Of a stretch of DNA of 64,000 nucleotides, positions 16,897 to 47,288 are shown in pieces. Positions within the stretch are counted from its first letter, which is position 1. The number at the start of each line of letters is the position of its first letter. The translations under genes and the position numbers were made by a program. The notes under the pieces are model-generated. The model made no database searches, was not told the DNA's origin, and saw nothing but the letters and a program-made list of their open reading frames with translations. This DNA is from Candidatus Altimarinota bacterium (GTDB lineage Bacteria; Patescibacteriota; Gracilibacteria; CAIRYL01): NCBI GenBank assembly GCA_965250085.1, contig OZ252287.1:121065-185064 (forward strand), written 5' to 3'.

Positions 16897-17606
16897 GGCT
16901 CTTGAGTAGAATAATTACTTCAATTATTCTCTTAACATGCTTAAACACAGTAAAATATCGAATTATAAGATCAAAAAAATATTGAAGTGTTTTTGTGAAG
17001 ATCTCAATGCATCAAAAACAGCAAATATTCTAGATCTCAATCGGAGAACGGTTGATCGATATTTTAATATTTTTAGAGAAAAGATTGCAAAGTTCTCTTT
17101 AGCACAGTCAAAGAGTTTTGGAGAATTTGAACTTGATGAAAGTTACTTTGGAGCAAAGAGAATGAGAGGAAAGAGAGGAAGAGGAGCCGCAGGAAAGACT
17201 CCTGTCTTTGGAATCCTTCAAAGAGAAGGAAGGGTATTTGTTTCTATTGTAAAAGATTGCTCCAGAAAAGAGCTCCTACCTATTATTCAAGGAAAAATAC
17301 TAGAAGGATCAACTATTCATACTGATGGATGGAGAGCTTATGATGGACTCATTCTCAATGGATATGATCACTATCGTATTCATCACTCAGAAAATGAATT
17401 TGCACGAGGAAAATGTCATGTAAATGGTATTGAATCCTTTTGGTCTTTTGCGAAAAGAAGACTCTCTAAGTTTAACGGAATTGCTTCTCACAAGTTTAAC
17501 TTTCACCTCAAAGAATGTGAGTGGCGATGGAACTATAAAGATCAAGATATTTTTGTTATAATGTCCAAAATTATCAGAGATTTTTAAAATCTCCTACTCT
17601 AGAGCC
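16897..17606 (+). mobile_element. IS1595-family (IS1016-like size) insertion sequence with 8-bp target-site duplication
   Basis: Inverted repeats GGCTCTTGAGTAG (16897-16909) and CTACTCTAGAGCC (17594-17606) match at 12 of 13 positions. They are flanked directly by identical TAAAATAA at 16889-16896 and 17607-17614. A single DDE_Tnp_IS1595-type ORF lies inside. Element length is 710 bp. Confidence 0.9.
16937..17587 (+). CDS. IS1595 family (ISXO2-like) transposase
   Basis: 216-aa ORF. 'FELDESYFGAKRMRGKRGRGAAGKTPVFGILQREGRVF', 'IHTDGWRAYDGL' and 'HVNGIESFWSFAKRRLSKFNGI' are typical of IS1595 transposases. Confidence 0.9.
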   Translation: MLKHSKISNYKIKKILKCFCEDLNASKTANILDLNRRTVDRYFNIFREKIAKFSLAQSKSFGEFELDESYFGAKRMRGKRGRGAAGKTPVFGILQREGRVFVSIVKDCSRKELLPIIQGKILEGSTIHTDGWRAYDGLILNGYDHYRIHHSENEFARGKCHVNGIESFWSFAKRRLSKFNGIASHKFNFHLKECEWRWNYKDQDIFVIMSKIIRDF

Positions 17607-17660: not shown

Positions 17661-19382
17661 ATGACATCGTCTATAAAGATATTCTTTGGAACAGGAATTT
17701 TTCTTTTGGGTTTTTCTCTTGTATTTGCTGCTGTACAGATCTCGGGGCAATCGCAAATAGAAATTTTTTCAGGGGAATACCTCTCTGAAACATATAGCAT
17801 CGATCCTGGAGCAGGAAATGCCGTGGATACCATTAGTTGGACGGGGTTGGAGCCAGGGCTTTTTGCGATAGAAAGTCAGGATAAAACAGAGATGTCTCTG
17901 CTGGGCTCACCAAAGATTGTTGGAAATCCATCTGTGTTGACTCTGGCGGCTACAAATAGCTTAGGAGAAAATCAGACTTTGGAAATTGCAATGCAAGAAA
18001 GAGCACTGCCTCCTATGTCTTGTGCCGATGTTTTAGCAGGTGATCCCGGGGCAACTGATGGACTCTATACCATACATGCCGATGATGAGGTGACTTCTTT
18101 TGAGGTCTATTGTGACATGACCTCTCCGGGAGGACCGTATACCCATATGGTAGAACACGTTGCTGCCGGATTTGGGCACACCTGTGCTCTCTTGGCAGAC
18201 ACCACGGTCAAATGCTGGGGATACAATAGATATGGGCAACTGGGTGATGGAACGACAACTGACCGCAGTACGCCTGTTGCGGTTTCTGGTCTTAATGATG
18301 TGGTCTCTCTTTCTGCTGGATGGATGCACACATGTGCACTCCTGAGTGATGGCAGTGTGCAGTGCTGGGGATATAATTATTACTATAATCTTGGAGATGG
18401 AACCCTCACGAACCGTACGACCCCTGTAGCAGTACAGAATGTTTCTAATGCTGTGCAAATTTCTAGTGATGGGCATCACTCCTGTACTCTTTTGACAGGT
18501 GGAACTATGAAATGCTGGGGAAGGAATAGTTATGGACAAATAGGAAACAATACTATTGGCACCAGAAGACATGTTACTGTTGTTCTGGGTATAAGTACTG
18601 CCACTTCTATTGGTGTTGGTGTCTACCACAGCTGTGCTGTCCTCAGTGATGGCACCGCTCTGTGCTGGGGGAGGAATAATATCGGACAGATCGGAATAGG
18701 AAGCACCAATAATTATATAAAAACTCCAAGAGCTGTTCTGAATCTTACAAATATCGTCGCGATTGATGGAGGAGAATATCATACCTGCGCTCTGCTCGAT
18801 GACGGTACGGCTCAGTGTTGGGGAAATGGTTATAATGGTCAGTTAGGCGATGGAGCAACTACTTATAGAACTTCTCCGGTAGCGGTTCAAAATTTAAATA
18901 CTATCGATACATTCAGTTTGGGAGCACGCCATTCTTGTGTTGTGCTCGATGATGATACAGCTCAGTGCTGGGGACAGAATATATATGGACAGCTCGGTGA
19001 TGGTACGACGACAAACAGCAGTGTGCCTGTCTCTGTACAAGGTATTTCCAATGCACAAAGTATTGTTGGTGGTTCGTATCATACCTGCTCCGCACTCTCA
19101 AACAAAACTGCCAAATGCTGGGGAAGGGATACCTATGGTCAACTGGGAGGAGGGATTATTACCGGTTTTGAATCCCTGAGTTCTCCCAGCACACTTTCTC
19201 AGGAAACTACTTCTGTTTCCGTTCCGGATGACTTTTCTTTTGACCCCATTGAATACTGCGCCGATATATTGGACAAAGAAAAGAAGCTGGAGAAATGTAT
19301 GGAAAAATGGGAGCAGGAGGTGGACAAATATTCTGGAATCGGTCCTAAAAGCCTGACTCCGCAGAGAGTGGAAGGGTTATAG
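17661..19382 (+). CDS. secreted RCC1-repeat (beta-propeller) protein with Ig-like and fibrinogen-C-like N-terminal segments
   Basis: 573-aa ORF. Signal or TM segment '[20 protein letters not shown]'. At least 7 repeats of the pattern 'HTCALL.DG...[17 protein letters not shown]'. Before the repeats lies '[42 protein letters not shown]', resembling the start of fibrinogen-related domains. Confidence 0.85.
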
Positions 19383-19408: not shown

Positions 19409-22400
19409 ATGCGAAAATTATTTTCTGTTCTCTGTTGTTTAATATTTCTTTCCGGACAAATCACTTTCCTTCCTCAAGTATCTGCTGAGGAAGTACTCGA
19501 ATCATCGACTTCAATTTTTGCGGAAACAACAGACGATCCCAATACAAAAGGAAAACCTGCTGGAAGTTCTGAAGAGCGTGATGTGATCCTTGATCCGGCA
19601 CTATTAGGATCTCTGGAAAGCAAGGGGCAGGTCACAAAAGAAAAGGGTGAATCAGTGCTGATAGCTCCTTTGGAAGACGCTTTTCAAGAGAATACCGACA
19701 CCTCTTCGCTTTCATCCGAATCCTTGTCGGCAAGTTCTTCCTCTTCTTCATCAGATCCGATGGATGCTGTTTCCAATGCTCCTTTGCCCGATGTAAATAC
19801 TGATCCGCTCAAAAACATTGCAGGTGTGCAGGGAGAATATAGCGTCAGTGAATTTACGGGAGATGTGCAATATTCGTACCCCCTCTTTATGCCTCCTGGC
19901 AGGAATGGTAGCTCTCCTTCTGTTACGCTCAGTTACTCTGCTAGTAATAAAGAGGGCAATTCTGAACTGGGAACGGGATGGAATTTAGATCTTCCCAAAA
20001 TCGAACGGTATTCTCGCACAGGAGTGGAAAATCTGTATGCCAATAATAATTTTCTTTCTCCCTTTGCCGGTGGTAATGGTGAGCTTTCCATTGACTCTAT
20101 TGATGCCAATGGACACGGGACGTATATCCCCAAAATACAAACAGGAGCGGTCTATCATGAATTCAAAGCAGACAACACTTGGGAGATTACTGATGCCGCA
20201 GGGGTGGTGTATCGATTTGGAACGGTATCAGATGCACGAGAACAAAGTGATGATGGCGGTAGAATGTACACCTGGTATCTGACCGAAATAGAAGACACTA
20301 ATGGCAACAAGATGATATATGAATATACCAAGAGCCAGGGGTCTGTATATCTGAAGCGTATACTCTATGGAAATGAAGCCCAGCCCTATGAAGTACGATT
20401 TGAACCCTATTTTTCCGGCACTCTTGAGCAGTTTGATGTACTTCCGTCTTATTCTCGTCTTTTCCCAGTGGTGGAGCAAAAAGACTTATTGGACTCTGTA
20501 GAGGTTTTTGATCCGTTTTCAGGAGACAAGATCGTGTATGAACTTACTTATGATACTCAAGGAACCTTTGGCTCTTCCGAAAGCCTTTCGGGCACTACTG
20601 ACTATCTTATCAGCATCCAGCAAAAAGGAGTGGCGGCTTCTGGTGTGGAAACCAGTTTGCCGCCGACCGAATTTGAATACGAGAGCTATGATGGGTCCCG
20701 ATCATTTGACATTGTCTATCCGGATTTGAGTGATGAAAATGGCTATGACAACACGTATTTCGATGGAACGGAGGACAGCCCCGTTCCCATGTGGATTTTT
20801 GCTGATGAAACCGGAGATGGATGGGAAGACCTGGTCAGCAATGTAGTGCGATATAAGAAAATTAATGGCAGTTATCATCATTTGCCGTATGAACGCTTAT
20901 TTGTTTCACAGGGAAATGGCGAATGGGTGGAAGATCCTGATTTTATGGCTTCGGAATCATACTGGGCATGGGAGTATAGGCCCCATGATATCCGGGATTA
21001 TTTTCCACCCGGATACAGAGACAATAACGGAGATGTGACCGATCATCTCTGTATTCGGAAATATCATGGAAATCTGGGTCAAAAAGATGGTTTGAGTTGC
21101 TATAACGGCGAGCATGGGAATGAGATGAAAGTGTACCCAAGAGATGAAGACTTCCAGTTTTTGGAACTCAACGCAGATGGGCATCCGGATGGATTTAAGT
21201 ATGACCATAAACAAAATTATCACAACAACACCGATAATTCCCTGTATAGAAATACCGGAACGGCGTTTGAACCGGAAACAAGTGCTCAGTGGAATATTCC
21301 GGATGATATCTTTTATGATGAAGGCAGTACACTGTTTGGAGATATCAATGGAGACGGACTGGATGATATGGTGCACTGGTTTCAGAAAGTGGATGAATCT
21401 TCCGTTCTGGTGGAAGAAACCAAGAGAGCCTACCTCAACACCGGAGAAGGTTGGCAAGATATCACTGCAGATATTTCACTGCCTGTTCCTATTCGCCATC
21501 GCAAATGTCAGAACGGAGTCAGTACCTGTGAAGTGATTTCTGTGAAAAAAACCTTTACCTTTCTCGATGCCAACAGAGATGGACTGGTGGATCTCTTTCA
21601 TCAAGGGAAAGTGCACCTGAATAATGGATACGGCTGGGAAAGCACTGTTTCGGAGCTGTACAACAGTTCATATGACTTTGATCCCAGTTTTCCCACGCTG
21701 AGCAGCTTTACAGATCTCAACAAAGACGGTGCTTTTGAACGCAAAAAGCCGGTTGGAAAAACATTTGCCAACAATAATGAGATCGTAGATCTTCCCGTGC
21801 TCACAAATGTTACAAGCCCTCAAGGAGGATTTGCCGAATTTGAATACACTCCTGCCTCGAGTTACACCAATGCCGATGGCAGTGCGGCGAATATTGAGCT
21901 CCCTATACCTCGTCTGACGTTATCTAAGCTTACAACCGATGACGGAATGGGAAATACAAGTGAAACCAATTATGAATATGCCGGTGGAAAGATGTATCGC
22001 AATCATGTTTCTGAGCAAGAGCTTTTGGGATTTCATATGGTCACCAAAGCATTGCCGGATAATTCAAAAATTATTACAGAATATGAGCAAGGGAGTGCCT
22101 CACAAAACTTTGCTGGGAAAGGGTCTCTTACAAATCAGAAAATATACACTTCTTCTGGAGATCTTTTGCAGGAAACACAGAATTTTTATGACATTGAACC
22201 CCGCGGAACCAATAGTTACGAATCCCTCCTGGAAACAAGTATCAATCTGACATATTCAGAACACAATCCTTCAAATTATAAAGCCACAGCCTCAGAATAC
22301 ACCTATGACCAGTATGGAAATATCATTCAGGCCATTGACTATGGAGAGGTGAATGTAGTGGACACAGCAGGCAACTTCACCGATATTGGCTCCGATACTC

Positions 22401-25400
22401 TCACCAGCAATATTGAATATGCAGAGAATGCGGCAGATCATATTCTCTCTCTTCCTCAGAGACAGGAACTCCTGGATAATTCCGGAACGGTTATTGGTGA
22501 AAGCAAAATCTATTATGACAATCTGCCACTGGGTCAAGTGAGCATCGGCAATCGCACCAAGACGGAAACACTCGCTTGTACTGGTCAGGCATGCCTGACC
22601 CCTACGGTGACAACTCTTACAGAGTACAACTCCTACGGTCTGCCGACAAAGGTGACCAATCCTCGAGGGTATGACACCAATATCACGTATGATTCTCAGA
22701 ATCTCTTCCCAGAGACAATTACGAATGCCAAATTACAAATTACAAATTACGAATACGATTATCTGTTTGGAATACCCGTGGAAGTGACCGATCCAAATGG
22801 AGCGAAGTCAATTACCGTGCTGGATTCTCTCGGACGAGTCACAGAAATCAAAGTCACTGATCCGAATAATACTGATACAGAAATCATCGCGAGCACCATT
22901 AACTACGACACTACATCAGTACCGAATAGTGTCACGACGACGACATACACCCACACTCCTCCCCTCTTTCGCAAAGAGGGGCTGGGGGAGATTTCTGTAG
23001 AGGGAGTTATGTATCTCGATGGATTTGGAAGACTTATTCAATCGCGGACTGAAGCAGAAGGGAGTGCACAGTATACAGTGCACAGTATACAGTATGATGA
23101 TCGGGGGAATATGGACAAACAAACTCTTCCTGTCTTCCAGAGTGGAATCTCATATACAGCTTCATCAGGATCTGAAGTAGGGAGTACGTATACGTATGAT
23201 GCTCTGAGCAGAGTGCTGAGTGAAATAACTCCAGTGGGAACGACTTCTACTGCGTATGATCAGTGGTCACAAACGGTGACTGATGCCAATGGACATCCAA
23301 AGGACTTTACTTCTGACGCTCGAGGAAATCTGACTGAGGTGACCGAACACTTGGACGGAACTCCATATGACACGAACTATGCCTATGATCAGCTGAACAA
23401 TCTCATCACAATCACAGATGCCAAGGGAAACATCAGAAACTTCACATATGACCTCCTGGGAAGACGTATCAGCATGGAAGATTTGCATACAGCAAACGAT
23501 GCAACTTTCGGACTGTGGACTTTTGACTATGATGACAACAGCAATCTCATCACTCAAACCGATCCAAAGGATCAGGAAATTTCTTACACCTATGATGAAC
23601 TCGATAGAGTCCTCACCGAATCAGCAAAAATTCCTCCGTCTTCCGTCTTCGAACTGCACACTTCATACGCCTATGACACCGGAACGTATGGCATTGGACG
23701 CCTTTCATCAATAGTGAGTCCCGCTGTGACCAAGAACTACACGTATGACATCCTCGGTAGAGTTATAAATGAACAAAAAAAGATTCTCGTACGGATTGAT
23801 GGCAATCAATCCCTACAAACTTTCGACTCGTACTTCACGTACGATCTCGCCGGCAATCAGCTCAGTATCACCTATCCTGGTTCGACAGGCTCACCACAAG
23901 CGAACATGCTCGTGGAATACACCTACAACAACGCTGGCCTTCTGGAAGCTGTACAAAAGGATGGAGCAGACATCGTCACTAATCTCGACTACATCCCTGT
24001 GGGGCTGGTCGAGAAAATTGATTACGCCAATGGCGTCAGCACCACCAATACGTATGACATTGGCCAAATCTATCGATTGACCAATAAATCCACCCTCCTT
24101 CACCAAGGTTCCGGCGGGCAGGCCGTACATCAGGATATCAGCTACACTTTTGATCCTGTGGGAAACATCACCCAGATCACAGACACCTCAGAGACCAACG
24201 CTGCCAAGACTTCTACATTTACCTATGATGATCTGGACAGGCTTCTTTCTGCAACCGTGAGCAATGCGGCCAATGGCGATAATTATGCGCGCAACTATAC
24301 CTATGATATCATTGGCAACATGCTGAGCCATTCAGAAGCCGGCAGTTATGAATACGCTGGAGGCGACTCTGGGACCAGCTCAGGAGCAAACTCCAATCCT
24401 CATGCCGTGACCGATGTGGCAGGAGTGGCGTATAGCTATGATGATAATGGTAATCTCATATCAAATAACACTTGGACCCATGGTTGGGATTATAAAGATC
24501 GCTTGCTGAGCTCTACAGATGGAACAGCTACGGTGAACTATACCTATGATGAAGGGGGAGCGAGGGTGAAGAAGGTGAATGCGACCAGTGGCAAAGAGAC
24601 GGTGTATGTGAATGAATTTGTGGATATCGAGGATTCTGCTGTGAAGAATCATATCTACGCCGGAGGGATGAAAGTGGCCACCTATTCTGCTGGAATTGCC
24701 AGTGGCAGTGGGAGTACGTGTACGGTAGATCTGAGTACATGTACAGGGGAAGGAGCAAGATCGCCGTTATGGGAGAATGAGACTTCTCTCAATGGAGCTA
24801 TAACTGAAGCGCATTATTTAGAAACATATGGACAGATGTGTGTGGTGATCTTGTCTGGTGGAGAACAGGTGGCATGGCCTGTAGCTCAGGAAGCAAGCTG
24901 GTGGTGTGGTGAAGTGAGTATCCCTGTCTATGAGAGTGATATAGTCTATCACCATGAAGATCACTTAACGGGATCAAATGTAGACACCGATGACACAGGA
25001 AACCTCATTCAGCTATTAGACTACTACCCCTATGGAGATACTAGACTCGATGAACAGTCATCATCGTACGCAAATGACTATAAGTTTACAGGGAAGGAGA
25101 AGGATGAGGATACAGGACTCTATTATTATGAGGCGAGGTATTATGATAGTGGGATTGGGAGGTTTATATCACTCGATCCCTGGTTTGGAGATATTTATGA
25201 CCCGCAGAGTTTGAATAAGTATGCGTATGTGAGGAATAATCCATTGAAGTATGTGGATGAGACGGGGGAGGTCTATCAAAAAATAGTAGACTGGGCTCTA
25301 AAGTGGGCTGCAAAAAAAACACTTCGAAAGGAAATTGAAGAAATGATCTTTCCTGAGCAAACGGCAGGAGAACCTGATCCTCGTATTCCTGAATCATCTT

Positions 25401-25762
25401 ATTCTCAGGTTCAAACTATATTTAACTCAAATGGATTACAGGCAAACTCCGTTCGAAGATTTTATGATGATGTTATTATCTCAGGGATCAGTGAAAACAA
25501 TCAAAATTTCACAGTAAATGTTGGTCCAGAATCTATAAGCTTATATATATCCTTCGAAGACTCTACAATTAGCTCTGCGGTAACCATTGACCTTACGAGC
25601 TCATTCCCTACAAGTGTAATGGAGAAAATTGATGATGAGGGATCAGTTGCTAGACTGGAATTAGTTGTTCGTAGTAAACTTGAGAATCATTATAAAAGTA
25701 TTAAGCCAAAAGAAGATGGAAAAGATGAAGAAAGTGAAACTGACAATGATTCAGGGGATTAA
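19409..25762 (+). CDS. Rhs/YD-repeat polymorphic toxin: signal peptide, SpvB-like, FG-GAP/VCBS-like, RHS cocoon, Rhs core, variable C-terminal toxin domain
   Basis: 2117-aa ORF. Signal peptide 'MRKLFSVLCCLIFLSGQITFLPQVSAEE'. SpvB-like 'GDVQYSYPLFMPPGRNGSSPSVTLSYSA...GTGWNLDLPKIER'. FG-GAP-like 'GDINGDGLDDMV','LDANRDGLVDLF'. Many YD repeats ('YTYDALSRV','YAYDQLNNLITITDAKGN','YTYDELDRV', and others). Core 'YHHEDHLTGSN...LYYYEARYYDSGIGRF...YAYVRNNPLKYVDETGE' ends at 25270, followed by 163 unrelated residues. Confidence 0.95.
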   Translation: MRKLFSVLCCLIFLSGQITFLPQVSAEEVLESSTSIFAETTDDPNTKGKPAGSSEERDVILDPALLGSLESKGQVTKEKGESVLIAPLEDAFQENTDTSSLSSESLSASSSSSSSDPMDAVSNAPLPDVNTDPLKNIAGVQGEYSVSEFTGDVQYSYPLFMPPGRNGSSPSVTLSYSASNKEGNSELGTGWNLDLPKIERYSRTGVENLYANNNFLSPFAGGNGELSIDSIDANGHGTYIPKIQTGAVYHEFKADNTWEITDAAGVVYRFGTVSDAREQSDDGGRMYTWYLTEIEDTNGNKMIYEYTKSQGSVYLKRILYGNEAQPYEVRFEPYFSGTLEQFDVLPSYSRLFPVVEQKDLLDSVEVFDPFSGDKIVYELTYDTQGTFGSSESLSGTTDYLISIQQKGVAASGVETSLPPTEFEYESYDGSRSFDIVYPDLSDENGYDNTYFDGTEDSPVPMWIFADETGDGWEDLVSNVVRYKKINGSYHHLPYERLFVSQGNGEWVEDPDFMASESYWAWEYRPHDIRDYFPPGYRDNNGDVTDHLCIRKYHGNLGQKDGLSCYNGEHGNEMKVYPRDEDFQFLELNADGHPDGFKYDHKQNYHNNTDNSLYRNTGTAFEPETSAQWNIPDDIFYDEGSTLFGDINGDGLDDMVHWFQKVDESSVLVEETKRAYLNTGEGWQDITADISLPVPIRHRKCQNGVSTCEVISVKKTFTFLDANRDGLVDLFHQGKVHLNNGYGWESTVSELYNSSYDFDPSFPTLSSFTDLNKDGAFERKKPVGKTFANNNEIVDLPVLTNVTSPQGGFAEFEYTPASSYTNADGSAANIELPIPRLTLSKLTTDDGMGNTSETNYEYAGGKMYRNHVSEQELLGFHMVTKALPDNSKIITEYEQGSASQNFAGKGSLTNQKIYTSSGDLLQETQNFYDIEPRGTNSYESLLETSINLTYSEHNPSNYKATASEYTYDQYGNIIQAIDYGEVNVVDTAGNFTDIGSDTLTSNIEYAENAADHILSLPQRQELLDNSGTVIGESKIYYDNLPLGQVSIGNRTKTETLACTGQACLTPTVTTLTEYNSYGLPTKVTNPRGYDTNITYDSQNLFPETITNAKLQITNYEYDYLFGIPVEVTDPNGAKSITVLDSLGRVTEIKVTDPNNTDTEIIASTINYDTTSVPNSVTTTTYTHTPPLFRKEGLGEISVEGVMYLDGFGRLIQSRTEAEGSAQYTVHSIQYDDRGNMDKQTLPVFQSGISYTASSGSEVGSTYTYDALSRVLSEITPVGTTSTAYDQWSQTVTDANGHPKDFTSDARGNLTEVTEHLDGTPYDTNYAYDQLNNLITITDAKGNIRNFTYDLLGRRISMEDLHTANDATFGLWTFDYDDNSNLITQTDPKDQEISYTYDELDRVLTESAKIPPSSVFELHTSYAYDTGTYGIGRLSSIVSPAVTKNYTYDILGRVINEQKKILVRIDGNQSLQTFDSYFTYDLAGNQLSITYPGSTGSPQANMLVEYTYNNAGLLEAVQKDGADIVTNLDYIPVGLVEKIDYANGVSTTNTYDIGQIYRLTNKSTLLHQGSGGQAVHQDISYTFDPVGNITQITDTSETNAAKTSTFTYDDLDRLLSATVSNAANGDNYARNYTYDIIGNMLSHSEAGSYEYAGGDSGTSSGANSNPHAVTDVAGVAYSYDDNGNLISNNTWTHGWDYKDRLLSSTDGTATVNYTYDEGGARVKKVNATSGKETVYVNEFVDIEDSAVKNHIYAGGMKVATYSAGIASGSGSTCTVDLSTCTGEGARSPLWENETSLNGAITEAHYLETYGQMCVVILSGGEQVAWPVAQEASWWCGEVSIPVYESDIVYHHEDHLTGSNVDTDDTGNLIQLLDYYPYGDTRLDEQSSSYANDYKFTGKEKDEDTGLYYYEARYYDSGIGRFISLDPWFGDIYDPQSLNKYAYVRNNPLKYVDETGEVYQKIVDWALKWAAKKTLRKEIEEMIFPEQTAGEPDPRIPESSYSQVQTIFNSNGLQANSVRRFYDDVIISGISENNQNFTVNVGPESISLYISFEDSTISSAVTIDLTSSFPTSVMEKIDDEGSVARLELVVRSKLENHYKSIKPKEDGKDEESETDNDSGD

Positions 25763-25780
25763 TTTACTACCCTTTTTTTT

Positions 25781-26428
25781 ATGGTGAAAAAAATATTTTC
25801 AAAACTTCCAATTCCAATAATATGGACCATTAATATTTTGCTGTTCCCTTTTTATTATTTGGTTGTCGCTTTCATTTTTGGAATTATTGACGGATATTTT
25901 TTTAATGGCAGTATTTTTACGGAAGAAAGAGAATCAGTTTGGGATTTATTAACATATATACTTTTTGGAATAGTTGGACTATTAAGTTATTTGTTTCATA
26001 GGTCTCTTTATTTTAAAATAAATTCTGAACAACGAAAAATATTTCAAGGGTTTCTAGTAGTGATAGGATACGTGCTTCTAATAGATTTTATATCCGTTTT
26101 TGGCTATACGATTTATGAACTTATTTTTATAGACTCTTTTTTAGTAGTATTAATTGACTTAACGCTTTCTGTTTTTTTATTCTCTGTCCTTTATCTCTTT
26201 TTTAAGAGGAAAAAAAATTACCGAATTATTCTTGTTATCTACTTGTGCATAGGTATTTTTGCGCCTTTCTTGCATGATTCCCTTTATGATTATTTAGAAA
26301 TTGAAAAACCTTTCAGGTTTTTTGAAATAAGTGTTGAGTCTTTTTTATGGATTATTTACAGAATTGTGGCAATTATTTATCTCAAAAAAACTCCCTCCCC
26401 GATAGAGCCTGTTTGTCGTAGACCATGA
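25781..26428 (+). CDS. polytopic membrane protein (immunity candidate for the Rhs C-terminal toxin)
   Basis: 215-aa ORF 18 bp after the rhs stop. At least 5 hydrophobic segments. No recognisable motif. The immunity role is inferred from position only. Confidence 0.6.
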   Translation: MVKKIFSKLPIPIIWTINILLFPFYYLVVAFIFGIIDGYFFNGSIFTEERESVWDLLTYILFGIVGLLSYLFHRSLYFKINSEQRKIFQGFLVVIGYVLLIDFISVFGYTIYELIFIDSFLVVLIDLTLSVFLFSVLYLFFKRKKNYRIILVIYLCIGIFAPFLHDSLYDYLEIEKPFRFFEISVESFLWIIYRIVAIIYLKKTPSPIEPVCRRP

Positions 26429-26794
26429 GTATCAAATAGTAGTGATGCGTGCAATAATGTTTCCCCTGCCCCCCCCGCTTCCGCGGGAGCAAGTGTCTCG
26501 CAGAGCACCTGGTCCAAAGCAATTCATAAGCTACCAATTGGACTGACATACTTCAAAAACATCTCTTTCTCATCTTTCTGGTGCCGTCATCGTTGGCTGA
26601 AGTCTTCCACCACGGCGGACAGGTTTGGACTCGAACGCTAACAAATAATTTAACAATGCTGCCAAAGCAAAAGCAATAAAAAGAGTGAGTAAGTACAAAG
26701 TATGGCAAGATGGAAATAGACCAAAGGGATAAAAGGGGTCGGCCACCTTTAATCGGAGGAAAGATATATCACCATCATAAATCAGGTTTATATA

Positions 26795-27865
26795 GTGCCC
26801 ATGCCAAAAAACAATATATCCAAAACCTCATCAACTTTTATTGCTCATTCTCAACGTGGTAACACATTGATACACGATGTACTGGAGTATCACCATGAGG
26901 ATCACCTCACAGATTCGGCAAGCTCACTGCGGGCGGATTTTAATGTAGATACGGATGATATGGGCAATGTTCTTGTGGTACTGGACTACTATCCCTATGG
27001 GGACGTGAGGTTGGATGAACAGAGTAGTTCATATGAGAATGACTATAAGTTTACGGGGAAAGAGAAGGATGAGGATACGGGTTTGTATTATTATGAAGCG
27101 AGGTATTATGATTCTGGGATTGGGAGGTTTACTGCTATTGACCCGATGGCAAAACTTTCTCCAGAAACTTTCCTGAAGGATCCTCAGCAATTAAATTCGT
27201 ACACTTATGTCCGTAATAATCCCTTGGGTGCAATTGATCCTGATGGGCTTCTCACTATCTTTATTCATGGAACTGTTTTGCCAGGAAAAAATACAAATCC
27301 ATTTTCTGAGGGTTATATGAAACAAGTTGCTACGGATCTTGGAGATAATAGCTATACAAATTTCTCTTGGTCAGGAACGAGTAGTGAAAAGGCAAGAACA
27401 GAGGCCGCAAGAAACCTGGAGTCTTTGGTTAGAAACTACGAATTTTCTGAGGGGGAACAGTTAAATATCGTGGGGCATAGCCACGGTGGGAATGTTTCCA
27501 TTGAAGCCATAAACACGAATAGAATGCTTCGCAATGTAGACAACCTTGTTCTTCTGGGTGCCCCAAATAGAGATGATTATACTTTAGATAATGATAATGT
27601 TGGGGCTGTGTACAATGTCTATTCATTGGAAGACAATATACAAAATAACTGGGGCGGAGAATTTACTACTAATCCCGCAGAGTCTACCTATGCTAATCAT
27701 CCGTGGAGAGCTGGCGAAAACGTGAAGAATCTTCGCTTTAGAGACATGAATAAGGGTCCAATTGAAACTCACTCATGGCTAAGAACACAGGAAGCTTGGA
27801 GTTATATTCGTAAATTTATAGAAGACAAAGATGAGGAAAGTTCGGATGACAAAGATGCAAGTTAA
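26795..27865 (+). CDS. orphan Rhs-core fragment fused to an alpha/beta-hydrolase (lipase/esterase-like) toxin domain
   Basis: 356-aa ORF lacking a signal peptide and the YD shell. It begins mid-core at 'YHHEDHLT...YYYEARYYDSGIGRF...VRNNPLGAIDPDGL' (26888-27250). Then 'LTIFIHGT' (HG oxyanion-type motif) and 'NIVGHSHGGNV' (GxSxG nucleophile elbow). Confidence 0.75.
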   Translation: MPMPKNNISKTSSTFIAHSQRGNTLIHDVLEYHHEDHLTDSASSLRADFNVDTDDMGNVLVVLDYYPYGDVRLDEQSSSYENDYKFTGKEKDEDTGLYYYEARYYDSGIGRFTAIDPMAKLSPETFLKDPQQLNSYTYVRNNPLGAIDPDGLLTIFIHGTVLPGKNTNPFSEGYMKQVATDLGDNSYTNFSWSGTSSEKARTEAARNLESLVRNYEFSEGEQLNIVGHSHGGNVSIEAINTNRMLRNVDNLVLLGAPNRDDYTLDNDNVGAVYNVYSLEDNIQNNWGGEFTTNPAESTYANHPWRAGENVKNLRFRDMNKGPIETHSWLRTQEAWSYIRKFIEDKDEESSDDKDAS

Positions 27866-27879
27866 TCTAATTTTTTACT

Positions 27880-28215
27880 ATGTCATTATTTTTTACACTG
27901 CCTTACTGTTTCGCGATTGTATCGCTCCATATAATTTCATTTTTTTTTGATTTATATGATACGGCCTGGGCATTTATTCCATTTTTTGTAATTTTCTTTT
28001 CCACATTATTTTTTATCTTGAGCTCATTTCTTGTTGTTAAACTGGTTTGTAATAAAAAAACAGAAAATAATTGGTACATCAAGTATTTAAAAGATCATAA
28101 ACTACAATTCACCATTATTACGATTGTTCTCACAATTCCTGTTTATTGTATCTTCAATGTAATAGCTTATTATTTGCTTTCTTTTTGGGGGGTCGATAGC
28201 AATTTTTGGTTTTGA
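27880..28215 (+). CDS. small 3-TM membrane protein (immunity candidate for the lipase-like toxin)
   Basis: 111-aa ORF 14 bp after the orphan toxin stop, with three long hydrophobic stretches. Role inferred from position. Confidence 0.55.
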   Translation: MSLFFTLPYCFAIVSLHIISFFFDLYDTAWAFIPFFVIFFSTLFFILSSFLVVKLVCNKKTENNWYIKYLKDHKLQFTIITIVLTIPVYCIFNVIAYYLLSFWGVDSNFWF

Positions 28216-28315: not shown

Positions 28316-28444
28316 ATGAAAGTAGTCACCTCTTCAGCCGGCATCGCTAGTGGCAGTGGCAGTACGTGCACAGTTGATTTGAGTGGATGTAGCAGTCAGG
28401 ACATGTCCCCGCTAGCGCGCGTTTGTAACGCGTGCAATAAATAA
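28316..28444 (+). pseudogene. relic of an Rhs core segment
   Basis: The 42-codon reading 'MKVVTSSAGIASGSGSTCTVDLSGCSSQD...' matches 'MKVATYSAGIASGSGSTCTVDLSTCTGEG' of the main Rhs (about 24670-24750) for ~25 residues and then diverges. Confidence 0.55.
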
Positions 28445-28460
28445 ACACTTTCAAGAATCC

Positions 28461-29426
28461 ATGTCAAAAAACTATACCTCTAACCCCCATGCAGTAACAG
28501 AAATAGCTGGTGTACCCTACTCCTACGATCCCAACGGCAATCTCACCTCCAATGATACCTGGAATCACTCTTGGGATTATAAAGACCGACTGCTGAGCAG
28601 TGCAGATGGAAGTACAACGGTGAACTATGAATATGATGAGGGAGGCAATAGAGTGAAGAAGGTGAATACCTCAAGTGGGAAAGAAACCGTGTATGTGAAT
28701 GAATACGTAGATATTGAGGATTCTGACCCTTCGACCGGCTCAGGACCTGCGGCAGTGAAAAATCATATCTATGCTGGAGGAATGAAGATAGCAACGTATT
28801 CTGAGGGTATTGCCAGTGGCACAGGGAGCACCTGTACAGTTGACCTCAGTGGATGTGCTGGAGAAGGAGACACATCTCCACTCTGGGAGAATGAAACTTC
28901 ACTCTCTGGAGTTTTGCAGGAAGAAGCTCATTATCTAGAAATCTCTGGAGATATGTGTGTGGTGTCTCTGGAGGGAGGAGAACAGGTTGCATGGCCAACA
29001 GAATCTGAACCCTCTTGGTGGTGTGGAGAAGTGAGTATTCCTGTCTTTGATAGTGATATTGTGTATCACCATGAAGATCACTTAACGGGATCAAATGTAG
29101 ACACCGATGACACAGGAAACCTCATTCAGCTCTTAGACTATTATCCCTATGGAGATGTGAGGCTGGATGAACAGTCTTCTTCTTATGAAAATGACTATAA
29201 GTTTACGGGCAAGGAAAAGGATGAGGATACGGGGCTGTACTACTATGAAGCACGGTATTATGATAGTAGTATTGGGAGGTTTGTGAGTTTGGATCCTTTG
29301 GTAAAAGTGTCTCCAGAGGTTTTCTTAGTTGATCCACAGCAACTTAACGGTTACTCATATGTTTCAAACAATCCCTTAAATGCTATCGATCCTGATGGAC
29401 TTCTTACTATTTTTATTCATGGGTGA
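28461..29426 (+). pseudogene. second orphan Rhs-core cassette, truncated or frameshifted right after the DPDGL motif
   Basis: The 321-aa ORF is collinear with the last ~290 residues of the main Rhs shell and core. It ends 'AIDPDGLLTIFIHG*' at a TGA following a GGG run. Confidence 0.7.
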
Positions 29427-29706
29427 TGACACTGAAATACCTGACGGAGCACAAATCCTCTCAGAGCGAGGACTTCTTGATCTGGACACTGAGTATAAAT
29501 ATGTCAACAAAGGTCAATTTGAAAGATCTGAAAAAGATACATGGGTTGAAAGTGGAAAAAATCCTGATTTTGCTGGTTCAGCTCAATGGTTTAGAGATTG
29601 CGTTATATCTGATACGTTCTTCTTGAATGATAGATTTCCTAACACTCAGTATCCAAATCGGGGTTCGCGTCGCGTGCTCAGGGTCAACTTGAACTTTGAA
29701 TCTTAA
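29422..29706 (+). pseudogene. out-of-frame ~94-aa putative C-terminal toxin module of the second orphan cassette
   Basis: The +1 frame continues open from the junction as 'GDDTEIPDGAQILSERGLLDLDTEYKYVNKGQFERSEKDTWVESGKNPDFAGSAQWFRDC...NLNFES*'. Skipping one G of GGG (29421-29423) would fuse it in frame to '...LLTIFIH'. Confidence 0.35.
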
Positions 29707-29736: not shown

Positions 29737-29761
29737 AGACCGCCTCATGGCGGTCTTTTTG
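29737..29761 (+). terminator. Rho-independent terminator closing the Rhs array
   Basis: AGACCGCC-TCAT-GGCGGTCT (8-bp GC-rich stem, 4-nt loop) followed by TTTTT. Confidence 0.8.
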
Positions 29762-29869: not shown

Positions 29870-32323
29870 ATGACGCTCAAAGCAGAGTTTTTCTTAAATC
29901 GGATTCTCAATGTTTCTCATAACGAATGGGGGAGAATAACAGCGTCCTGGATTCTTCGATTTCTTTTGCAGACTTCTACGGTATTAGGATTTATCCTCAT
30001 GACCGCTTTTTTTGTAGAACAGCAGGGGATAGAGCGCCTTCCTCTTCTCTTTGTGCTTGAATCTCTTTTTGCAATCGGAGGCTCTTTTGCTCTTGGAAAT
30101 TTTTTAAAAACAGTGTCTCTCAAAAAACTTTTTGTTTTTGGGACATGTTTTAGTGCTTTTTTTATTTTTCTAGCAGCTCTTTCTCCTCACACTTCTCCTC
30201 TTTTTTGGGGACTGCTTCTCTTTACCTATTCGGTCTGTATTGTCCAGCTCAACATCATCATGGTTCTCTTTATTGAAGAACTTTTTACCCCCCTGGAAAG
30301 CGATCATACCTTTCCTGTCGTTGAGTCGGCAGAACCATTTGGCACACTTCTTGCTGGGGCTGCAGCAGCTGGAGGAGTACTGCTTTTTAATATGCACGCC
30401 TATAGTTTTCTCTGGATGTGGATGGGAGTTATGCTTCTGATGCTGCCGGCAATGGGACTGCTCAAGGTGCAATTAGAACCAGTTCCAATGCCAAAATCCC
30501 GTGAAAGTGTTGCACAAAGAACTTCTCCTTGGGAGCAGATGCGCAATATGATAGAGCATATGACAACGATTCCTTTCTTAAAGGGACTTTTTTTGATCGT
30601 ATTGTTTCATTATATCGCATTTCACCTTGTTGAATTTGAATTTACCAAGGCAATAGATATCGATTTTGCTTCGCGTAAGACGCACATGAGTGAAGCAGAC
30701 GCGCTTACTCACGGGCTTGGGAAGTTTCATATTTTTATTTCTCTGATATTTCTCTTCTTCCAACTTATATTTGCAAGCCGAATTATAAAAACTATTGGAA
30801 TCGTACGCACTATGGTTGTACACCCAATTCTTTCTTTTCTCGGATCTTTTTTCCTTTTTCTCAAATTTTCACTGGTGAGCTCCGTGGGGACAAAAACCAT
30901 ATTCGAGGTTTTTGGAGGAATTCAGAGAGATGCATATCATGCGTCCTTCTACGCACTTCGGCCAAAGATTCGCAATCAAGCAAAAGAATTTTTAGAGGGG
31001 ATTGCTCGACCACTCGGAATGCTTCTGGGAACGATCTTACTTATTTTCCTCCAAAATGTATTTTCAGAAAGCTTTCAAAATGCTGCATTTTCCGCAGCAC
31101 TTATGCTGATTTTTTCGTATATGGCATTTGAAAGCATACGGCTGATTCAAAAATACACATTTCTTGCTAAGAAAAACCTAGAAACAAAGGGGAATGCTCC
31201 TGAAAAAATAGATGCTATTGAGATTCTCGCTCAAATGGGTCACAAAAATGCTGCTCAGCATTTGATCAAGTCACTAGAATTTCGAAAGGATCAACCGGAG
31301 GTTCGAGCAAAAATCCTTCAGACGTTGGGAGCTCTTGCAGATCCATTGGCGCTTCCAGAGATTTTAAAATTTCTTCAAGATAAACACAGAGAAGTGCAAT
31401 TTGCTGCAGTACAAGCCCTGTCTGGATACAAAAACCTTGGAAAATCTCATCTGACAAAATCTTTTTCACAGCATCGAGTAGTAGAGGTTTTGAAAGAACT
31501 TTTTGTACAGACAAAATCAAAGGAAACAAAAAGAACAATTATTGAGGTTTTTCGGAATCTTAATCAGAGAGACACTGTTCCTTTTCTCTTGGAAGCACTT
31601 GAAACCCAAGACATAGAACTCAAGGCAGATGTCATCTCGATTTGTGGACTTTTTCATGATGTTTCTACTGTGTATTATCTCGGAAAATTCTTAGACGACG
31701 AGCATCCTCGAGTGCGCTCTAATGCAATTATTGCACTCTGGAAATTCATGCCATACAGGCTCAAGCTTCTCATGAAGCTCAATACTATGTTTGAATCAAC
31801 AGATATGGACAGTATTCTTTCGGCCATTTATGCAGCTGGAGAATTGAGGCTGATCCAAGAAGTCCCACGTCTTCAAAGATTCCTTTCTCATGAGCACCTG
31901 GATGCTCAGAAGCATGCGTCTATTGCTCTTCTTAAAATGGGACATCATATCGTAATAGAAAAAGTAGTATTCTTCCTTTTGCATCAAGATCAAGAACTTG
32001 CCGAAAGCACCAAAAAACTCCTTACGAAAGTACCGCAAAAGATGCAAGAAGCATTGCAAAGATCTCTGCGCCAAAAGATGTCAAAAAGAATATCTGCTAT
32101 TCTTAAAAAATCTGATACGGAGATTCTGGAAGAGATGGAAAAGTCGGTATTGCGAGACCTGTTGGAAGCATATCAAATCCTTCAGGCTGAAAGGGAAATC
32201 CTTCAAATAGAGCAAATCTTAGAAGAAAAAGAAACAAAAACTTCAAAGGAAAAAACAACTTCGAAAGACGTACTTCATCACCAAGGAAGCGTTACGCTGG
32301 AAGATCTTTTGACTCCGATGTAA
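29870..32323 (+). CDS. polytopic MFS/TLC-like transporter fused to a C-terminal HEAT-repeat domain
   Basis: 817-aa ORF. About 430 N-terminal residues carry ~11-12 hydrophobic helices. The C-terminal half has HEAT/PBS-lyase-type repeats ('ALPEILKFLQDKHREVQFAAVQALS','DDEHPRVRSNAIIALW','SHEHLDAQKHASIALLKMG'). Confidence 0.65.
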   Translation: MTLKAEFFLNRILNVSHNEWGRITASWILRFLLQTSTVLGFILMTAFFVEQQGIERLPLLFVLESLFAIGGSFALGNFLKTVSLKKLFVFGTCFSAFFIFLAALSPHTSPLFWGLLLFTYSVCIVQLNIIMVLFIEELFTPLESDHTFPVVESAEPFGTLLAGAAAAGGVLLFNMHAYSFLWMWMGVMLLMLPAMGLLKVQLEPVPMPKSRESVAQRTSPWEQMRNMIEHMTTIPFLKGLFLIVLFHYIAFHLVEFEFTKAIDIDFASRKTHMSEADALTHGLGKFHIFISLIFLFFQLIFASRIIKTIGIVRTMVVHPILSFLGSFFLFLKFSLVSSVGTKTIFEVFGGIQRDAYHASFYALRPKIRNQAKEFLEGIARPLGMLLGTILLIFLQNVFSESFQNAAFSAALMLIFSYMAFESIRLIQKYTFLAKKNLETKGNAPEKIDAIEILAQMGHKNAAQHLIKSLEFRKDQPEVRAKILQTLGALADPLALPEILKFLQDKHREVQFAAVQALSGYKNLGKSHLTKSFSQHRVVEVLKELFVQTKSKETKRTIIEVFRNLNQRDTVPFLLEALETQDIELKADVISICGLFHDVSTVYYLGKFLDDEHPRVRSNAIIALWKFMPYRLKLLMKLNTMFESTDMDSILSAIYAAGELRLIQEVPRLQRFLSHEHLDAQKHASIALLKMGHHIVIEKVVFFLLHQDQELAESTKKLLTKVPQKMQEALQRSLRQKMSKRISAILKKSDTEILEEMEKSVLRDLLEAYQILQAEREILQIEQILEEKETKTSKEKTTSKDVLHHQGSVTLEDLLTPM

Positions 32324-32387: not shown

Positions 32388-33833
32388 ATGTCATCTACAT
32401 TGAAAGCAAGCTGGGAGTCTATATTACAACAGCTTTCAAAAGATATTTCTCGGGCAAATCTGATTACCTGGTTTCAAAAAACCGCTCTTTTGGAGTTTGA
32501 AAATGGTATTCTTACAGTGGGAATTCCTCGTCAGTTTTTTTTAGCGTGGCATACTGCAAATTCGAAAGACAAAATTCAGGAAGTGGCAAAAGAGGTACTT
32601 GGAAATGTGCGATCTGTAGAATTTTCTGTTGATGGAAATTTAGATAATCCGGAGAACGAGAGTGCTATTGATGTTCTCAAGCTTTTTCCAAAAGGAGAAG
32701 TAAAAATGAGAAAACTTCCCAAGCGTGCAGAAGTGAAGATAGATGGGGAGATCATCAGCAAGATGATTTCACCCAAATATTCACTGCAAAATTTTGTGGT
32801 TGGATCAGAAAACAGACTTGCATATGCTTCGTGTAAAGCAGTAGGAGAACATCCTGGAGGCATGCAGGAAGATGGAGTATTTCCATATAATCCACTCTTT
32901 ATTTACGGCGGAGTGGGGCTCGGAAAGACGCATCTTTTGCAGGCAACCGGAAATGAAATTCTGAGAAAAAATAATACGCTCGTAGTGCTCTACCTTACAG
33001 CAGAAAGTTTCGTATCTGAGATTGTCGAAGGTATACAGAAAAGAAAAATGGAAAAAGTGCGTGAAAAATATCGTAAGGTAGATGTCCTTATTCTTGATGA
33101 TATTCAGTTTTTTGCTGGAAAAGATCGAAGTCAGGAAGTTTTTTTCCATATCTTTAATGATCTGTATGACGCTGGGAAACAAATCATTTTATCATCAGAC
33201 AAACCTCCAGCAGAGCTAGAACTCACAGCAGATCGACTGAGGAGTAGATTTTCTATGGGGCTTGCTATTGATGTGCAGTTTCCTGATTACGAAACGAGAC
33301 TTGCTATTGTGCGTATGAAAGCACAAGAAATCGGACTGGTGTTAGAAAATGAAATTTTAAATTTTATTGCCTTTAATGTTCACCATTCAATTCGAGAAAT
33401 AGAGGGTGTTCTTCGTGAAATCCGTGCTCAGGAAGAATTTGAAGGTGTAAATCCTACTATAAAAGGCGCAGCACTTATTCTGAGAAAGCTCTATAAAGAT
33501 CAAGATATTGTCGGATATGATGAAGAACGAAATGTCCCTGGTCCAGTGAGAAGTATGGATGACATTGTGGAACAGGTCGCTGACTTTTATTCAGTCACCA
33601 AGACTGACGTGCTGGGAAAGGCGCGTAATCGGGAGTTTGTTATTCCTCGGCAAGTCGCTATGTTTTTCTGTAAAAAATATCTCCGATTCTCACTGCAACG
33701 CATTGGCACTTTTTTTAGTGGACGTGATCATACTTCGGTGATTCATTCTCTCGATATGGTAAAAAAGAGAAAAAAAACGGATCCTCAGTTTTGGAGAGAT
33801 ACAAATACCCTTCGAAAAGAACTCGGATTTTAA
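32388..33833 (+). CDS. dnaA: chromosomal replication initiator DnaA
   Basis: 481-aa ORF. Walker A 'GGVGLGKTHLLQA', Walker B 'VLILDDIQFFAGKDRSQEVFFHIFNDL', 'RLRSRFSMGLAIDVQFPDYETRLAI', and domain IV 'PRQVAMFFCKKYL..SLQRIGTFFSGRDHTSVIHS'. Confidence 0.95.
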   Translation: MSSTLKASWESILQQLSKDISRANLITWFQKTALLEFENGILTVGIPRQFFLAWHTANSKDKIQEVAKEVLGNVRSVEFSVDGNLDNPENESAIDVLKLFPKGEVKMRKLPKRAEVKIDGEIISKMISPKYSLQNFVVGSENRLAYASCKAVGEHPGGMQEDGVFPYNPLFIYGGVGLGKTHLLQATGNEILRKNNTLVVLYLTAESFVSEIVEGIQKRKMEKVREKYRKVDVLILDDIQFFAGKDRSQEVFFHIFNDLYDAGKQIILSSDKPPAELELTADRLRSRFSMGLAIDVQFPDYETRLAIVRMKAQEIGLVLENEILNFIAFNVHHSIREIEGVLREIRAQEEFEGVNPTIKGAALILRKLYKDQDIVGYDEERNVPGPVRSMDDIVEQVADFYSVTKTDVLGKARNREFVIPRQVAMFFCKKYLRFSLQRIGTFFSGRDHTSVIHSLDMVKKRKKTDPQFWRDTNTLRKELGF

Positions 33834-46718: not shown

Positions 46719-47288
46719 ATGAAAGAAATAAAAAACATGATCCATATCTCAACACGAGAAGAATGGAGGCAGTGGCTCGAAAAAAACCATAAAAAGGAAG
46801 CAAAAGTTTTTTTAGTGAGTTATAAAAAACACACGGGCAAACCATCAATTACACATCGAGAATCTCTTGAAGAGGCAATTTGTTTCGGATGGATTGATAC
46901 CACTATCAAGAGGTTGGATGATGAGCGATATGGGAGATATTTTGTCAGAAGAACAGATAGCAGTCGATGGAGTGAAAATACTTTGAAGTATGCCAAAGAG
47001 CTTATACGAGAAAAGAGAATGGCACCTGAGGGACTGAGGAGATATAAAGAAGGACTCAAAAAACCAACACATGATCACGGTATTCCCAAAAACCCATCTC
47101 CTCCTCCAGAATTAGAGAGAGCTCTCGCAGAAAATAAAAAAGCAGAAGAAAACTTTAAAAATCTGGCGCCTTCATACAAGAAGACGTATTTACGCTGGCT
47201 ACTGGGTGCCAAAAGAGCAGAGACACGTGAAAAACGAATAACCAGAATCGTGACTCTGATGGAACAAAATAAGAAGCTTGAATTTTAG
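46719..47288 (+). CDS. YdeI/OmpD-associated family protein
   Basis: 189-aa ORF. 'EWRQWLEKNH', 'EAICFGWIDTTIKRLDDERY', 'RRTDSSRWSENT' and 'YKKTYLRWLLGAKRAETREKRI' match the YdeI family layout. Confidence 0.7.
   Translation: MKEIKNMIHISTREEWRQWLEKNHKKEAKVFLVSYKKHTGKPSITHRESLEEAICFGWIDTTIKRLDDERYGRYFVRRTDSSRWSENTLKYAKELIREKRMAPEGLRRYKEGLKKPTHDHGIPKNPSPPPELERALAENKKAEENFKNLAPSYKKTYLRWLLGAKRAETREKRITRIVTLMEQNKKLEF

Follow-up and report, generated by a model that had tools for sequence, protein, structure and literature searches.

A TcB-TcC-type Rhs protein with a predicted Sec signal and a putative swappable toxin-immunity module from an apparent candidate phyla radiation bacterium

Organization of the locus

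We analysed a stretch of 64,000 nucleotides from contig OZ252287.1, hereafter called the window. On its forward strand, one open reading frame (ORF) at positions 19409-25762, with an ATG start and a TAA stop, encodes a Rhs-family protein of 2117 amino acids. Its last 163 residues, which we designate CT1, form a C-terminal tip of the kind that is presumed to be carried inside the shell of such proteins as a toxin. An ORF for a 215-residue membrane protein begins 18 bp past the Rhs stop codon, and further Rhs core fragments with their own small ORFs lie downstream (Table 1). TAA, TAG and TGA each terminate genes across the window, and therefore the standard code 11 holds and the 215-residue ORF, although it is in frame with the Rhs gene, is no read-through product. 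An alternative genetic code joining the two ORFs in their common frame was ruled out by the TAA stop and by the use of all three stops.

Table 1. Features of the Rhs locus in the window (GC3, GC content at third codon positions; CT2, tip of orphan 1)
Feature	Position	Strand	Basis
IS1595-family transposase ORF, 216 residues, marking the upstream border of the locus	16937..17587	+	Pfam DDE_Tnp_IS1595, E 5.3e-33; GC 33.6%
Secreted-type RCC1-repeat beta-propeller protein, 573 residues, candidate accessory or targeting partner	17661..19382	+	Pfam RCC1-like, E 5.9e-75
Putative Sec signal peptide (signal peptidase I (SPI) type), residues 1-26	19409..19486	+	n-region, h-region, VSA/EE cleavage site; hydrophobic segment 3-25
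SpvB/TcaC N-terminal domain, residues 149-310	19853..20338	+	Pfam PF03534, E 2.3e-15
FG-GAP-type beta-propeller with Ca-type motifs and TcdB_toxin_midN, residues ~460-887	20786..22069	+	Motifs and Pfam
YD/RHS-repeat shell	22070..25021	+	RHS_repeat, 8 stretches, E 2.8e-31; teneurin-like and Rhs shell matches in PDB
Rhs-associated core with aspartyl self-cleavage motif	25022..25270	+	TIGR03696; R1910, D1923 (SLDP), D1950 (VDETG)
CT1, 163-residue tip, presumed encapsulated toxin	25271..25759	+	No relatives found; GC3 24%
Six-helix membrane protein, 215 residues, candidate CT1 immunity protein	25781..26428	+	Helices, loop charges, position
Orphan 1: Rhs core fragment (homology from ~26888) leading via IDPDGL to the alpha/beta-hydrolase tip CT2	26795..27865	+	Abhydrolase_8
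Three-helix membrane ORF, 111 residues, candidate CT2 immunity protein	27880..28215	+	Helices; GC 28%
Short Rhs remnant, 76 nt, 80% identical to 24668-24743	28316..28391	+	blastn
Orphan 2: shell end and core, stopping short at DPDGLLTIFIHG*	28461..29426	+	75.6% DNA and 80% protein identity to 24391-25165
Terminator-like hairpin closing the array	29737..29756	+	8 bp stem, 6 GC pairs, T run; consensus match only

Domain architecture of the 2117-residue protein

The predicted signal peptide, MRKLFSVLCCLIFLSGQITFLPQVSA followed by EE, was recognized from the sequence and its hydrophobicity profile; it consists of MRK, a hydrophobic core and the cleavage site VSA/EE, and one hydrophobic segment lies at residues 3-25. 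A linker rich in Ser, Asp and Glu follows (residues 27-148), in which Pfam gives no match even at E<=1 and no anchoring domain is present. Among PDB sequences, the SpvB region matches the N-termini of TcdB1 and YenB (E ~6e-4). Ca-type DxDxDG motifs occur four times in the propeller region (residues 466, 645, 720 and 769), and its FG-GAP_3 match is borderline, with 26.3 bits where the cut-off is 26.9. TcdB_toxin_midN (PF12256) lies over its cut-off at residues 796-887 (E 1.4e-11); this domain was absent from an earlier, preliminary description of the locus made from the sequence. Profile searches of the protein identified the shell as RHS_repeat (E 1.2e-28 and 2.8e-31) and YD_repeat_2x (E 6.9e-19). 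Thus, the signal peptide, SpvB region, Ca-type motifs, YD shell and Rhs core that the preliminary description had placed in one ORF are each backed by a profile or a motif.

Just ahead of the start of the core at YHHEDHL, the shell contains an insertion of about 80 residues with four cysteines (24689-24940), which is also found in orphan 2. Three relatives (P0004 to P0006) have a different insert at this site, which appears beta-helix-like by eye.

Rhs core and predicted self-cleavage site

The Rhs_assc_core profile TIGR03696 covers residues 1872-1953 (E 5.6e-22), and the core terminates in NNPLKYVDETGE at residue 1954, nucleotide 25270. The cut motif is PLKYVDETG, which has the form PxxxxDxxG conserved in TcC proteins (PMC7861908), and a cut is predicted after E1954 (...VDETGE). 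The nearest PDB matches of the core are the TcC proteins RHS2, TccC2 and YenC2 (E 6e-17 to 1e-14), whereas type VI secretion system (T6SS) Rhs proteins reach only ~1e-5. R1910, D1923 and D1950 align residue by residue with RHS2, TccC2 and YenC2, and the R-to-D spacing of +13 is that of BiTLP, a teneurin-like toxin discussed below. The aspartyl-protease centre, which the preliminary description had proposed to check by alignment, is therefore intact. TccC2 has QDENG and RHS2 has KDNDG at the position of the cut site, which makes the DETG of the present protein compatible with function. The placement of the core motif gives residues 1955-2117 as the predicted tip, in agreement with the boundary drawn previously.

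The C-terminal tip

CT1 has a mass of 18.3 kDa, an isoelectric point (pI) of 4.5 and an acidic tail. Relatives of CT1 and of the 215-residue protein were sought in Pfam, NCBIfam, PDB, ~15 billion proteins and metagenome scans, and none was found. CT1 has no match in Pfam, NCBIfam or PDB sequences, a word-indexed search of 5.8 billion clusters gave nothing, and no relative was found in scans of metagenome and viral contigs. An exhaustive HMMER search of 1.84 billion representatives returned P0002 as its sole match (E 5.4e-5); this is a 1004-residue TPR-repeat protein that is matched in five repeated stretches, and we rejected it as an artefact. The tip had been described as unrecognizable, with an acidic tail, and it was suggested to check whether it belongs to a well-known toxin family. 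It remains unmatched by family, sequence or structure, and no such family was found in Pfam, NCBIfam or PDB.

The best single-sequence AlphaFold (AF2) model of CT1 consists of helices, a five-stranded sheet and a long helix, with a predicted local distance difference test score (pLDDT) of 64 and a predicted TM-score (pTM) of 0.53; the other four models have pLDDT values of 40-49. Foldseek comparison of the model with PDB and BFVD gave nothing at E<=1e-3, with TM-scores up to 0.39. A candidate new toxin fold, as suggested earlier, cannot be claimed from a single-sequence model of this confidence and an empty Foldseek search. The probability that the CT1 frame is open by chance is ~2e-6 given the local base composition.

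The adjacent membrane protein

Six long helices are predicted in the 215-residue protein, and the charges of its loops fit the positive-inside rule with both termini inside (N-in/C-in). Its structural model has a pLDDT of 58 and served for helix counting only. The protein matched only itself among the 5.8 billion clusters and has no metagenome relative. Its matches to DUF1129 and DUF6962 (E ~0.01) are far below the cut-offs and were disregarded, and an immunity protease of the CPBP/Abi type has no Pfam support. The chance of such an open frame is ~1e-7 given the local base composition. The six predicted helices and the 18-bp gap bear out the polytopic membrane ORF that had been reported in the immunity position, and by analogy with known toxin loci we consider this protein a candidate immunity protein for CT1.

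Downstream array and base composition

The window contains three copies of the Rhs core, and the two orphans are 75-77% identical in DNA to the core of the main gene. Orphan 1 lacks a start codon. Its tip, CT2, is a lipase-like protein with a GHSHGG motif; Abhydrolase_8 is over the cut-off (E 3.3e-5), and PGAP1, Tle3 and Lipase match weakly. The nearest homologous Rhs protein, P0004, carries the same hydrolase as its main tip, and in the related locus L001 a 101-residue membrane ORF stands directly after the homologous hydrolase tip. The similarity between that ORF and the 111-residue ORF following CT2 is marginal (E 0.015), and we do not claim homology. A 108-residue ORF in another frame (29380-29706), which has no Pfam match, overlaps the truncated end of orphan 2 and could represent a third tip that was frameshifted or replaced. 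The spacer of 366 bp between the 215-residue ORF and orphan 1 (26429-26794) has 44% GC and includes a run rich in C (CCCCTGCCCCCCCCGC); the ORFs on its two strands are all short.

The main gene and the orphans cease to be homologous in DNA at 25165-25166, 35 codons ahead of the cut site. The GC content falls in steps: the shell has 46%, the tip module 37% and each membrane ORF 28%. GC3 is 24% in both CT1 and the 215-residue ORF. The 18-bp spacing and the shared low GC3 tie CT1 and its neighbour together as what appears to be one acquired module. The orphan array, the step in GC and the hydrolase tip common to orphan 1 and P0004 make a stronger case for a polymorphic toxin than the preliminary description had offered; it had missed the orphan array, as well as the conserved upstream gene and the host lineage described below.

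The acidic tails that terminate CT1 and CT2 resemble each other (GKDEESETDNDSGD and DKDEESSDDKDAS), and ~45 nt of 3' DNA including the stop codon is common to their genes (25720-25767 and 27826-27869). The local alignment score of these ends is 29, compared with 16.4 +/- 2.7 and a maximum of 28 for shuffled sequences. Such a likeness might reflect either a 3' junction common to both genes or a tail motif. The homologous tip of P0004 lacks the acidic tail of CT2.

Related loci and search for delivery machinery

The nearest relatives have the shell in common, at 37-43% identity over 86-88% of the length, and have unrelated tips. P0004, P0005, P0006 and P0007 have a common shell with differing tips, which include the alpha/beta hydrolase of P0004 and an Ntox44 domain in P0005. 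Within a few bases 3' of each nearest relative there is a small ORF, and three of these encode membrane proteins. Membrane ORFs follow CT1, CT2, the hydrolase tip of L001 and the Ntox44 tip of L084. A genome scan with the whole Rhs protein gave no relatives, an exact look-up of the proteins of the window found none on record, and a literature search found no paper on Rhs in Peregrinibacteria.

The preliminary description had proposed a whole-genome search for TcA-like, T6SS or type VII secretion system (T7SS) genes. We ran it on the 41 larger ORFs of the 64-kb window, and none of these belongs to a TcA, T6SS or T7SS family. Nor is there a TcA-sized (>2,000 residues) or TcA-family gene in the 6-10 kb flanks of six related loci.

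Upstream gene, flanking region and host

The RCC1 gene, whose product has an N-terminal hydrophobic segment, lies 26 bp upstream of the Rhs gene. In L001, the nearest Rhs homologue is likewise immediately preceded by an RCC1 gene (43-47% identity), and L002 and L084 have a gene with a tail-collar domain or a GNVGIGT motif in the same position. Genes for secreted proteins of a binding type are directly upstream in the four closest loci (17661-19382 in the window, 8594-9883 in L001, 1604-2365 in L002 and 9127-9975 in L084); those of L001, L002 and L084 contain either GNVGIGT...CIGxC as a motif or a tail-collar domain of the phage kind. More distant related loci have no such gene upstream. In P0091, RCC1 and RHS are fused in one protein. 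A possible role for the RCC1 or tail-collar-like product of the upstream gene is that of a targeting partner.

The RCC1 and Rhs genes have a GC content of 44-46%, compared with 39% outside, which together with the adjoining IS1595 transposase suggests that the locus may be an acquired island. The P0004 locus is on a plasmid-like contig with Rep3, ParA, relaxase and type IV coupling protein (T4CP) genes.

Downstream of the array, an 817-residue protein (29870-32323), polytopic in its N-terminal half and carrying HEAT repeats at the C-terminal end, is encoded directly before dnaA (32388-33833), which places the toxin locus near dnaA. An ORF for a VirB4/TraG-like ATPase (37030-39114; TraG P-loop, AAA_10 and TraC_F_IV) has no other recognizable type IV parts in the neighbouring large ORFs. 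A 189-residue ORF (46719-47288) contains an OmdA/YdeI 'bacteriocin-protection' domain (E 3.8e-20).

The relatives found for ClpB of the window are all from metagenome-assembled genomes of Peregrinibacteria or Peribacteria, with 50-56% identity. The contig measures 1.37 Mb. These data point to a divergent lineage of the candidate phyla radiation (CPR) as the host.

Comparison with known systems

The order of SpvB, FG-GAP/TcdB_midN, RHS shell and TcC-type R/D/D core is the same as in the Tc BC subcomplex (TcdB2-TccC3, YenB-YenC2/RHS2 and TcdB1-TccC2) and in natural TcB-TcC fusions. Since SpvB, TcdB_midN, RHS and a TcC-type core are all present, the earlier assignment as a fused TcB/TcC-type Rhs protein bearing a Sec signal stands. 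In contrast to Tc BC, the present locus has the Sec signal, immunity-position ORFs, an orphan array, a short acidic tip and a CPR host, and it lacks TcA within the searched regions.

Classical enterobacterial Rhs loci reportedly have arrays of orphan tips and immunity genes. They are similar to the present locus in the core-tip joint at PxxxxDxxG, the small ORF that comes next, the start-less orphan fragments and the drop of GC at the tip. Here, however, there is no link to PAAR, VgrG or T6SS, the N-terminus consists of a signal peptide, SpvB and a propeller, and the partners are polytopic membrane proteins. The core also has a sequence match to Tse5, a T6SS Rhs protein of P. aeruginosa with a solved shell and core (PDB 8cp6, E 1.8e-13). 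With a pore-forming tip and an immunity protein embedded in the membrane, Tse5 would be a functional analogue. In contrast, Tse5 is delivered by the T6SS, and CT1 does not have the hydrophobic segment expected of a pore-forming tip.

BiTLP is exported by the Sec/SPI route, has a YD shell around a cleaved tip of ~15-18 kDa and is directly followed by its immunity gene; its tip is toxic only when exported and permeabilizes cells (PMC13018210). BiTLP and WapA both resemble the present system in Sec/SPI export, a YD shell with a small cleaved tip and a gene in the immunity position. Teneurin-like proteins (TLPs) are defined by an FN-plug, an NHL propeller and a YD shell, and 96% also carry a TIP domain (PMC13018210). 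In the present protein, a propeller of the FG-GAP/TcdB type is located behind SpvB and there is no NHL match, which places it outside the teneurin-like definition; the TLP structures 9pt5 and 9ifo match its shell only (residues 1007-1737). WapA shares a Sec signal peptide, which is predicted here, and a Pfam scan found no wall-binding or S-layer domain in the 2117-residue protein. WapA is not known to have SpvB or FG-GAP. The alternative 'WapA-like or BC-type' offered in the preliminary description can accordingly be narrowed: the TcB/TcC architecture supports its BC-type part, whereas WapA is an analogy only. Judged from sequence comparisons, the protein would be a TcB-TcC fusion by its domains, a classical Rhs polymorphic toxin by the logic of its locus, and WapA- or teneurin-like by its export route.

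Proposed mechanism

The observed architecture, motif conservation, modular array, step in composition and absence of relatives are probably best explained by a stand-alone, Sec-exported and TcA-independent Rhs polymorphic toxin, which would be a fused TcB-TcC ('BC cocoon') with a swappable toxin-immunity module in a CPR host. From these observations we infer export, cleavage, toxicity, immunity and target. The 2117-residue protein would be exported by Sec; CPR bacteria are not known to have an outer membrane, so that this route would lead to the cell exterior. Outside the cell, the propeller-capped YD shell would fold around CT1, and the aspartyl centre of R1910, D1923 and D1950 would cleave behind ...VDETGE. 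CT1 would then be the toxic cargo, freed onto a neighbouring or host cell, possibly with the aid of the RCC1 propeller protein, and the six-helix membrane protein would shield the producer and its kin. The orphan cassettes of core, tip and membrane ORF would serve as spares; recombination within the common core sequence could put them in the place of CT1 and its partner.

For the activity of CT1, the envelope or membrane of the target, reached from outside, appears to be the likeliest place, although we hold this assignment only tentatively. The membrane-embedded partners and the lipase-like sister tip suggest such an activity, and the BiTLP tip, carried in a Sec-exported YD shell and toxic only when exported, may be a precedent for it. 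The lack of hydrophobic segments and the acidity of CT1 count against a helical pore-former. A more far-reaching version, which we regard as speculative and unlikely, would make CT1 a toxin of unseen fold that acts on the envelope from outside and is neutralized in the membrane by the six-helix protein. The RCC1 or tail-collar-like protein would be its TcA-independent targeting subunit, and the whole a two-gene delivery system by which a CPR episymbiont acts against host or rival cells.

Several points weigh against the proposed toxin system. CT1 contains neither a hydrophobic segment nor a recognizable catalytic motif, and with its acidity this indicates neither a helical pore-former nor an enzyme; its structural model is of low confidence. 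The toxicity of CT1 and the protection by its neighbour rest on inference. A Pro is present at the cut site (DPxG form) in 27 of the 32 homologues parsed and missing in five, which makes DETG the rarer type; a strict regular expression parsed 32 of ~120 homologues, and this count is therefore merely indicative. L002 has a basic tip followed by a soluble ORF, so that the subfamily is not uniformly envelope-directed. TcA or another secretion system may be encoded beyond the 64-kb window.

Alternative explanations

Alternatively, the protein could act as BC subunit in a canonical Tc toxin of three parts, in which a TcA encoded elsewhere in the genome injects CT1 into eukaryotic cells. SpvB, TcdB_midN, FG-GAP, RHS and the TcC-like core are the architecture of TcB plus TcC, natural tcB-tcC fusion genes exist (PMC7861908), and the window is a small part of a contig of 1.37 Mb. 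However, TcA is missing both from the scanned ORFs of the window and from the flanks of the six related loci. Tc loci have no immunity genes (PMC7861908), whereas the ORFs in the immunity position and the orphan array are hallmarks of toxins directed against bacteria. CT1, which is also acidic, is shorter than the 201-400 residues of 97.9% of TcC tips (PMC7861908). The Tc toxin of Yersinia entomophaga is reportedly freed by lysis that depends on a type X secretion system (T10SS) (PMC10847048), in contrast to the Sec signal here, and the host would be a CPR bacterium with a small genome. Altogether, we consider a Tc subunit highly improbable. A surface role of the teneurin kind seems very improbable as well: the protein would be an adhesin or cell-contact protein by which an episymbiont attaches to host cells, the YD shell being a scaffold and killing playing no part. 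Peregrinibacteria belong to the Patescibacteria/CPR, a group described as living on the surface of host cells (PMC13622651), the upstream RCC1, tail-collar or fibre-like genes are typical binding modules, and metazoan teneurins are repurposed YD-shell toxins (PMC13018210). The self-cleavage centre that metazoan teneurins have lost (PMC13018210) is nevertheless kept here; varying tips, the orphan array and the immunity-position ORFs are signatures of conflict rather than adhesion, and the sister tip is a lipase-like hydrolase.

It is also conceivable, if unlikely, that CT1 is a decayed or non-toxic extension, such as a tip that was displaced and is drifting or a cargo without toxicity, with an unrelated 215-residue ORF, and that the functional weapons are the hydrolase-type modules. 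The absence of relatives of both ORFs in all searches would fit this explanation, as would the lack of a visible catalytic motif, the low-confidence model of CT1 and the less common variant of the cut motif. Lineage-specific ORFs without homologues are common in CPR genomes, and for this reason the lack of matches proves little either way. Against decay, both ORFs are intact in AT-rich, stop-prone DNA, which the chance estimates given above make difficult to ascribe to accident, and CT1 is attached to the sole full-length, signal-bearing gene, whereas the hydrolase tip is on a start-less orphan. All residues of the R/D/D centre are in place, and TccC2 functions with DExG. Furthermore, spacing and shared GC3 bind the tip to the membrane ORF, whose product obeys the positive-inside rule.

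Implications

One CPR genome was previously reported to encode a YD/Rhs toxin next to an immunity gene (PMC6031116), and 65.5% of TcC tip clusters are without a recognizable domain (PMC7861908). Unrecognizable Rhs/TcC tips are thus usual, which limits the novelty of CT1, and the locus is a further case of a familiar toxin class rather than a new kind of system. If CT1 and the 215-residue protein work as a pair, they would nonetheless represent a toxin family and an immunity family new to every database searched. The recurrent binding-type gene upstream and the absence of TcA from the searched regions make this subfamily suited to asking how cargo exits a BC cocoon that has no TcA. If the proposed reading is true, an ultra-small CPR genome spends ~12 kb, or ~1% of the 1.37 Mb contig, on a cocoon toxin that is exported by Sec and has warheads in reserve, which would bear on how episymbionts fight their hosts or rivals.

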